Shown piece after piece: positions 61,140-61,481 of a stretch of 64,000 bases of DNA. The notes under the pieces are model-generated. The model saw only the letters and a list, made by a program, of their open reading frames with translations, had not been told where the DNA came from and ran no database searches. The DNA is from Escherichia coli (GTDB lineage: Bacteria; Pseudomonadota; Gammaproteobacteria; Enterobacterales; Enterobacteriaceae). Made by a program: the position numbers and the translations under genes. The DNA lies in the NCBI RefSeq assembly GCF_013315695.1, contig NZ_CP054353.1. The stretch is one strand, 5' to 3'. The stretch's first letter is position 1. Each line of letters opens with the position of its first letter.

Positions 61140-61481
61140 GCTGCTTGAAAGTTTTTTGATCTTACCCAGCAATACCAGCGTTACGGTGCACCACGCCTGA
61201 CTGAATAACTGCGTGCTTAGAGTTACCACTGCAGCGCATAACCGTGGCAGCAGGCCCGGACAGAACAAACGGCTCAGGACATTATCGGTAGGGGACGCAC
61301 TGCTAGTCTGTAAACTGAACCGACTGGGGCGCAGTATGTGGCATCTTGTCGTGCTGTTGGAGGAGCTGTGCGAACGTGGTATTAACTTTCGTGCTCTGGC
61401 CCAATCTATATTTGCCCAACAATGGGGGGACGGAAGCTGTAAAAGTAAAACAATCTGCGATCTCAGAGTTATTGTGTGATT
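61140..61481 (+). pseudogene. pinH: Serine recombinase (Pin/Hin/Gin DNA-invertase family) remnant, truncated at both ends
   Basis: Frame translation RPGQNKRLRTLSVGDALLVCKLNRLGRSMWHLVVLLEELCERGINFRAL aligns with the conserved invertase core (...GDTLVVWKLDRLGRSM.HL..L..EL.ERGI.F.SL); N-terminal catalytic serine region and C-terminal HTH are missing. Confidence 0.7.

Follow-up and report, generated by a model that had tools for sequence, protein, structure and literature searches.

A short invertase-derived sequence lies 410 nt upstream of the autotransporter gene ypjA, on the same strand, in the 64-kb stretch of Escherichia coli DNA analyzed here (64,000 nucleotides; hereafter, the window). We identify it, with a probability of roughly 0.93, as pinH, a non-functional internal fragment (~54 in-frame codons, residues ~41–95) of a serine DNA invertase of the Pin/Gin/Cin/Fels-2 type. 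pinH is an already catalogued and ordinary E. coli pseudogene, a piece of inert mobile-element debris and not an adhesin switch, and we infer no present-day role for it. Because it is a named pseudogene in the K-12 reference and an automatically called partial recombinase in thousands of genomes, the fragment itself matters little. The useful outcome is a negative one, namely that pinH provides no evidence for past or present phase variation of YpjA/EhaD by DNA inversion. There is also a small gain in annotation: the IS3 joint is now placed exactly, the ypjA cassette has a defined boundary, and a P2-like arm, a CP4-57-like arm and an ssrA att core are recognized as unannotated relics. The locus illustrates the layered debris apparently left by repeated integration at ssrA and subsequent IS-linked deletion.

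An internal invertase fragment at the pinH locus

The genome of K-12 MG1655 carries the annotated pseudogene pinH (b2648) at the same spot, between ypjB and ypjA. The K-12 region is 94.8% identical to the window at the nucleotide level over 401 nt and has equal flanks, and this identity, together with a position between ypjB/ypjCB and ypjA near ileY, places the fragment at the pinH locus. Strain MS 21-1 matches positions 60900–61820 with 100% identity, and this stretch is present in thousands of complete genomes. In MS 21-1, PGAP reports a pseudogene ‘recombinase family protein’ with both N- and C-terminus missing at window positions 61243–61410, and a partial “recombinase family protein” is called at the matching place in ~3,000 complete E. 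coli genomes; the annotated length is 240 nt in K-12 versus 168 nt by PGAP. The portion of the literature reached by our search yielded nothing on pinH beyond the bare co-occurrence of the names pinH and ypjA in one paper.

The gene order in MS 21-1 is gabD, lhgO, glaH, an alpha-amylase-like gene, tRNA ileY, a DUF5507/DUF5508 gene, the pseudogene, a 39-codon hypothetical ORF and ypjA/ehaD. Several of these neighbors vary in their annotation. The DUF5507+DUF5508 gene (ypjCB, 59428–60882, ~34% GC) is one intact 484-codon ORF in the window, is split into ypjC and ypjB in K-12, and is frameshifted in some strains. The alpha-amylase-like gene ygaQ (55786–58038, minus strand) is an intact 750-codon ORF here and a pseudogene in the K-12 annotation; its GC content of ~37–41% is low relative to the neighboring glaH/lhgO region. 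The tRNA with a CAU anticodon at 58596–58671 was called ‘Met’ by ARAGORN, versus ileY, tRNA-Ile(CAU), in RefSeq.

The features that we distinguish around pinH are as follows:

60995–61061, plus strand: outer-arm (ogr-side) remains of a P2-like prophage that integrates at ssrA (87% identity over 83 nt, a match that takes in the att-core relic listed next, to strain 2020N21-246, L012 3001–3083)
61062–61076, minus strand: decayed 3′-terminal ~15 nt of ssrA (tmRNA), an att-core relic (window TGAT-GAGTTGGCGG)
61077–61134, plus strand: what remains of the distal arm of a CP4-57-like island at ssrA (73 nt, 79% identical to strain MEI3O-23, L013 3001–3073)
61157–61174, plus strand: left terminal inverted repeat (IRL) of IS3, nt 1–18 (19-nt exact match to L004 970–988)
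61175–61256, plus strand: internal fragment of IS3 orfB, ~IS3 nt 544–626 (79% identity, E = 5e-12, to IS3 transposase genes on many plasmids)
61246–61407, plus strand: pinH, an in-frame internal invertase fragment, codons ~41–95 (Pfam, Gin, 82% nucleotide identity to an intact invertase, PGAP, b2648)
61438–61818, plus strand: ypjA’s own upstream region, including a 39-codon ORF (61634–61753), not invertase-derived (90% identity to L005 3001–3379)
61819–64000, plus strand: 5′ part of ypjA/ehaD, an adhesin-like autotransporter gene cut by the window end (PGAP annotation of MS 21-1)

The first-pass annotation had described 61140–61481 as a decayed serine invertase, and formal alignment finds similarity to serine recombinases that is far beyond chance. 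The 88-codon ORF at 61213–61479 (GTG start at 61213) matches Pfam Resolvase (PF00239) with 36.9 bits (E = 4.8e-9), against a curated cut-off of 23.3. The best match among solved structures is Gin of phage Mu (PDB 4m6f/3uj3; E = 6e-14), with residues 10–67 of the fragment aligned to Gin 38–95 of 193, and the second is γδ resolvase (~1e-3). Matches in phage genomes range from 68 to 74% amino acid identity, with the Fels-2 invertase as the best (73.6%), others being SEN8 and Cin of P1/P7 (68.5%); these alignments always end at ‘...AQSI’. At the DNA level, 61251–61391 (141 nt) is 82% identical to an intact invertase gene from a P2-like prophage (L003), in whose 197-aa product Resolvase spans residues 3–135 (profile positions 2–144) and HTH_7 spans residues 138–181. 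The fragment is short, and half of 61140–61481 is not invertase-derived, as would be expected if the resemblance were fortuitous or the ORF mis-called, with no true invertase ancestry. That reading is already refuted by the Gin match, by a Pfam score above the cut-off and by the nucleotide identity to an intact invertase gene, and its probability is next to negligible.

By sequence ancestry, then, pinH descends from an invertase gene, of which it retains a minor part. The interval first described was wider than the invertase homology, which is in frame at 61246–61407 and leaves a trace to ~61427; the remainder consists of IS3 sequence at 61157–61256 and the ypjA leader from 61438. The accompanying claim that the N-terminal serine region and the C-terminal HTH are missing holds, the homology being limited to codons ~41–101. 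Resolvase is covered at profile positions 47–102 of 145 only, so that a complete catalytic domain of this type (~145 positions) is not present in pinH. The N-terminal ~40 codons are gone, and with them the nucleophile motif GYVRVSTxxQ with its catalytic Ser; upstream of codon ~41, where homology begins, lie IS3 orfB and the IRL. Everything after codon ~95–101 is likewise missing, including HTH_7, for which the Pfam search gave no match, and helix E, through which the subunits of serine recombinases mainly contact one another. A gapped alignment recovers an out-of-frame DNA trace of the invertase as far as the ATGGGG of codons 100–101, at ~61427, and beyond this point alignment of the tail to the 3′ part of the intact invertase gene was no better than that of shuffled sequences.

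Element debris at ssrA and a proposed origin of the fragment

Immediately 5′ of the invertase homology, an internally deleted and then truncated IS3 is represented by its left end and a piece of orfB, IS3 nt 19–543 having been lost at the pinH locus. In the matching locus L004, the IS3 end TGATCTTACCCAGCAATA begins at 971, 65 nt upstream of orfA. The orfB translation is still readable in the orfB frame in the K-12 allele, and a CAGGCC/CAAGCC microhomology (~61251–61256) marks the joint of IS3 with the invertase. No orfA, DDE region or right end was found at the locus, and what is left of IS3 is a remnant rather than an element.

Layered debris fills the 270 nt that separate the DUF5507/5508 gene from the IS3 end, and the whole block lies in the ssrA-to-ileY interval. 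The P2-like arm relic (database E = 5e-17, pairwise E = 2e-23) matches the arm that separates ssrA from the last gene of the prophage, and the CP4-57-like arm relic (database E = 3e-7, pairwise E = 9e-14) matches sequence between an ssrA-core copy and CbtA/YeeU toxin–antitoxin genes. Exactly between the two arms, as tandem integration would predict, lies the att-core relic, which agrees at 12 of 15 nt, with one gap, with the reverse complement TGGTGGAGCTGGCGG of the ssrA 3′ end CCGCCAGCTCCACCA. MS 21-1 has another sequence resembling the ssrA core, TGATTGGGCTGGCGG, beyond ypjA (L001 13644–13658) and just before the resident P4-like element, and the two core copies bracket IS3′-pinH′-ypjA. The arrangement matches what serial integrations at ssrA would be expected to leave. 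The arm and core relics (60995–61134) are unannotated both in K-12 and by PGAP. CP4-57 occurs with a psaA core copy in K-12, and Fels-2 occupies ssrA in Salmonella. Tandem traffic of elements at the tmRNA gene ssrA was reportedly described by Williams in 2003 (J Bacteriol 185:1059).

These surroundings bear out the suggestion, made when the sequence was first read, that the fragment is a defective-phage remnant: among intact genes it is closest to the tail-fibre invertases of P2-like prophages, and it is fused to an IS3 scrap beside the P2-like arm, the ssrA att core and the CP4-57-like arm. We propose that ssrA was the target of successive integrations by several mobile elements and that one of these, probably a P2/Fels-2-like prophage, brought in the tail-fibre invertase. 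After IS3 had inserted, almost everything would have been removed by a minimum of three deletions, which affected the interior of IS3, the stretch from IS3 to the invertase, and the stretch from the invertase to the ypjA leader. Derivation of pinH from a Fels-2/P2-like prophage once integrated at ssrA has roughly even odds in our judgment. In the P2-like prophage at ssrA of strain 2020N21-246 (L014), the invertase lies on the strand opposite ssrA, as pinH does. We rejected as donor the prophage whose arm survives at 60995–61061: pinH lies to the right of the att-core relic, and the invertase of that prophage would be expected on the left. This placement on the wrong side of the core implies either that the donor was a different, later element or that rearrangements intervened.

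The L014 prophage also contains an IS3-family element, IS1203, between its invertible tail-fibre segment and its invertase (25467–27383), inside the interval bounded by two pix-type sites. Its position beside an invertase recalls that of IS3 in pinH, perhaps because IS elements repeatedly target such sites.

No less decayed version was found at the pinH locus among the genomes compared. A scan of 100,044 species representatives with a pinH-specific 22-mer returned only two contigs, both E. coli-like contaminants. These were from Terrisporobacter mayombei DSM 6539 (L010, 539 nt, coverage 0.74) and the Planococcaceae MAG UBA3370 (L011, 2799 nt), are 92–96% identical to the E. coli pinH/ypjCB region, and look like E. 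coli contamination.

The ypjA leader and DNA inversion

The position of the fragment, upstream of an adhesin-type autotransporter gene with which it shares its strand, had raised the possibility of a former phase-variation switch, surface proteins being common targets of phase variation. The invertase would once have flipped a segment carrying the ypjA promoter, in the manner of Hin and hix, and the switch would since have decayed in one orientation. We find this very unlikely, and the evidence below already largely refutes it.

A paralogous autotransporter locus beside ymgJ carries a leader that is 90% identical to the 380-nt region upstream of ypjA and has no invertase. In sampled genomes without pinH, this locus was the sole match to a 2.3-kb query, with the shared part starting at 61438 (in one case at 61469), right after the end of the fragment; the 3′ break of pinH lies at ~61428–61437, abutting the left edge of the ypjA cassette. 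Since the ypjA upstream region is also present at an invertase-free locus, the adjacency of pinH and ypjA is a deletion or recombination joint and not a regulatory unit. A switch also fits poorly with the IS3 and island debris, and no promoter cassette, on the 5′ side of the fragment, and with nearest relatives that are phage tail-fibre invertases.

Crossover sites, which had not been recognized by eye in the first reading of the sequence, were not recovered by systematic searches either. We used a 26-bp pattern that we take to describe hix/gix/cix/pix-type sites and that was validated here on control prophages: in L003 it detects one site, the real one, which precedes the intact invertase by 56 nt, and in the P2-like prophage L014 it detects both sites bounding the invertible tail-fibre segment. 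Allowing up to 3 mismatches, the pattern had 0 matches in the 64-kb window, the vicinity of the ypjA promoter included. A core-only pattern, AAACCNNGGTTT, with up to 2 mismatches had 39 matches versus 28.9 expected, none of them after 59823, which leaves the stretch from there to 64000 without so much as a degenerate core. An inverted-repeat search over 58.5–64 kb returned only short and imperfect arms (≤25 nt, 71–93% complementarity), none of them site-like.

Comparison across strains likewise argues against inversion. At least 80% of 61100–61500 is carried by 3,006 complete genomes; 3,003 are collinear on one strand over 60900–61820 and 2,973 over the longer interval 60300–62600. The non-collinear exceptions that we sampled were deletions into ypjA or IS insertions. 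With ~3,003 of the 3,006 pinH-bearing complete genomes collinear, no inverted variant and no polymorphism in orientation was seen among the assembled genomes compared.

The leader has some features of its own. The ~250 nt before the ypjA start (61586–61834) show no differences from K-12, with flanks at ~7%, and are ~95% identical to the ymgJ-locus leader. Relative to the paralogue, the 39-codon ORF, a hypothetical protein according to PGAP, has a start-codon change and 4 non-synonymous and 0 synonymous changes, a pattern by which conservation looks nucleotide-level rather than protein-level. Folded as RNA, the ypjA leader showed no unusual structure (z = 0.09). ymgJ, which at the paralogous locus is an ORF of 61 codons with a GTG start, has a counterpart at 61487–61522 that is stopped after 11 codons; ymgJ is either not a real conserved gene or has decayed in the ypjA-side copy.

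Allelic decay and comparison with known systems

Both break points of the fragment are common to all six alleles that we compared, indicating that the truncation is ancestral to the pinH-bearing lineages, and the decay proposed above would accordingly have preceded the divergence of these E. coli lineages. Later lesions differ by allele. The GF43 allele is interrupted by an in-frame stop (EL*ERG) and lacks 4 nt of the IS3 part; the K-12 and O157 alleles are stopped immediately ahead of the homologous region, and 9 of their 16 first codons are changed in amino acid relative to the window strain; and in O157:H7, Z1833 is deleted from ~61404 into ypjA. All alleles read KLNRLGRS, versus KLDRLGRS in intact invertases. 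An ORF is thus not maintained across the alleles, and the independent disabling lesions are evidence of neutral decay.

The window allele is a mosaic, GF43-like in its left part and K-12-like in its right part. There are no differences from K-12 at 61294–61433, a 139-nt identical tract within a low-divergence block (61294–61950) that differs from K-12 by ~2%, compared with ~7% in the flanks; GF43 differs at many positions there. Because the tract is part of this larger block and GF43 varies within it, we read it as a recombination block rather than a sign of constraint on pinH, with constraint on the ypjA leader perhaps contributing.

The identical tract is nevertheless one of the observations that could be taken to mean that the fragment has been exapted. 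In that case the 88-codon ORF, or an antisense 122-codon ORF (61137–61505, minus strand), would encode a functional small protein, such as a dominant-negative partner of a resident Pin, or the DNA itself would serve ypjA regulation. Both ORFs are open in the window strain, and the break points are conserved in ~3,000 genomes. The plus-strand ORF, however, is broken differently in different alleles, by the stops before the homology in K-12 and O157 and the in-frame stop in GF43, and amino acid changes between alleles are abundant. In five of the six alleles the minus strand has a stretch of 109 codons or more without a stop, but indels in GF43 shorten it to 90 codons, and it is common for a long frame to be open on the strand antisense to former coding sequence. 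The fragment also lacks helix E. A promoter and terminator scan of 60850–61900 gave site counts at chance level overall and nothing on the plus strand, and an Rfam search over 58–62 kb at E ≤ 1 matched the ileY tRNA only. With these results, exaptation is very improbable. A sigma-factor peak from genomic SELEX, given as ‘between ypjA and ileY’, was considered and set aside: it is given in older K-12 coordinates and maps near ypjC/ileY, not pinH.

A wider variant would have the pinH/IS3 debris co-opted into the upstream control of ypjA, for example as a silencing or transcript-initiation region, with the block between the ssrA-core copies as the carcass of an ancient ssrA element and ypjA/ehaD as island cargo that entered or was kept; we hold this to be very improbable. 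Inert debris of a phage invertase remains our preferred reading of pinH, and comparison with better-known systems places it as follows.

The likeness to promoter inversion of the flagellin (Hin/hix) type extends only to a recombinase-type sequence beside a surface-protein gene. Unlike that system, the pinH locus is without inverted repeats, crossover sites, orientation polymorphism and an intact recombinase, and its promoter region is common to an invertase-free paralogue.

The phage tail-fibre invertases (Fels-2, Pin of e14, Cin of P1 and Gin of Mu) share with pinH homology over residues ~41–95, at 68–74% amino acid and up to 82% nucleotide identity. In contrast to these, pinH lacks the 5′ part of the gene and the region of the Ser nucleophile, as well as helix E, HTH_7, 26-bp crossover sites and an adjacent invertible tail-fibre segment, and the Asp of KLDRLGRS is replaced by Asn. 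In Hin and Gin systems the enhancer is located in the 5′ part of the invertase gene.

In tandem ssrA island and prophage arrays, arms are split by partial copies of the ssrA 3′ end, and the arrangement here is alike, with a P2-like arm, a core relic, a CP4-57-like arm and, in MS 21-1, a second core after ypjA, although the relics are heavily decayed in comparison with known arrays. Closest of all is K-12 b2648 itself, in which the locus (ileY–ypjC/ypjB–pinH–ypjA), the orientation, and the break points with IS3 and the ypjA leader are equal to those of the window, whereas the window allele differs from it and carries extra stops in the IS3 part.
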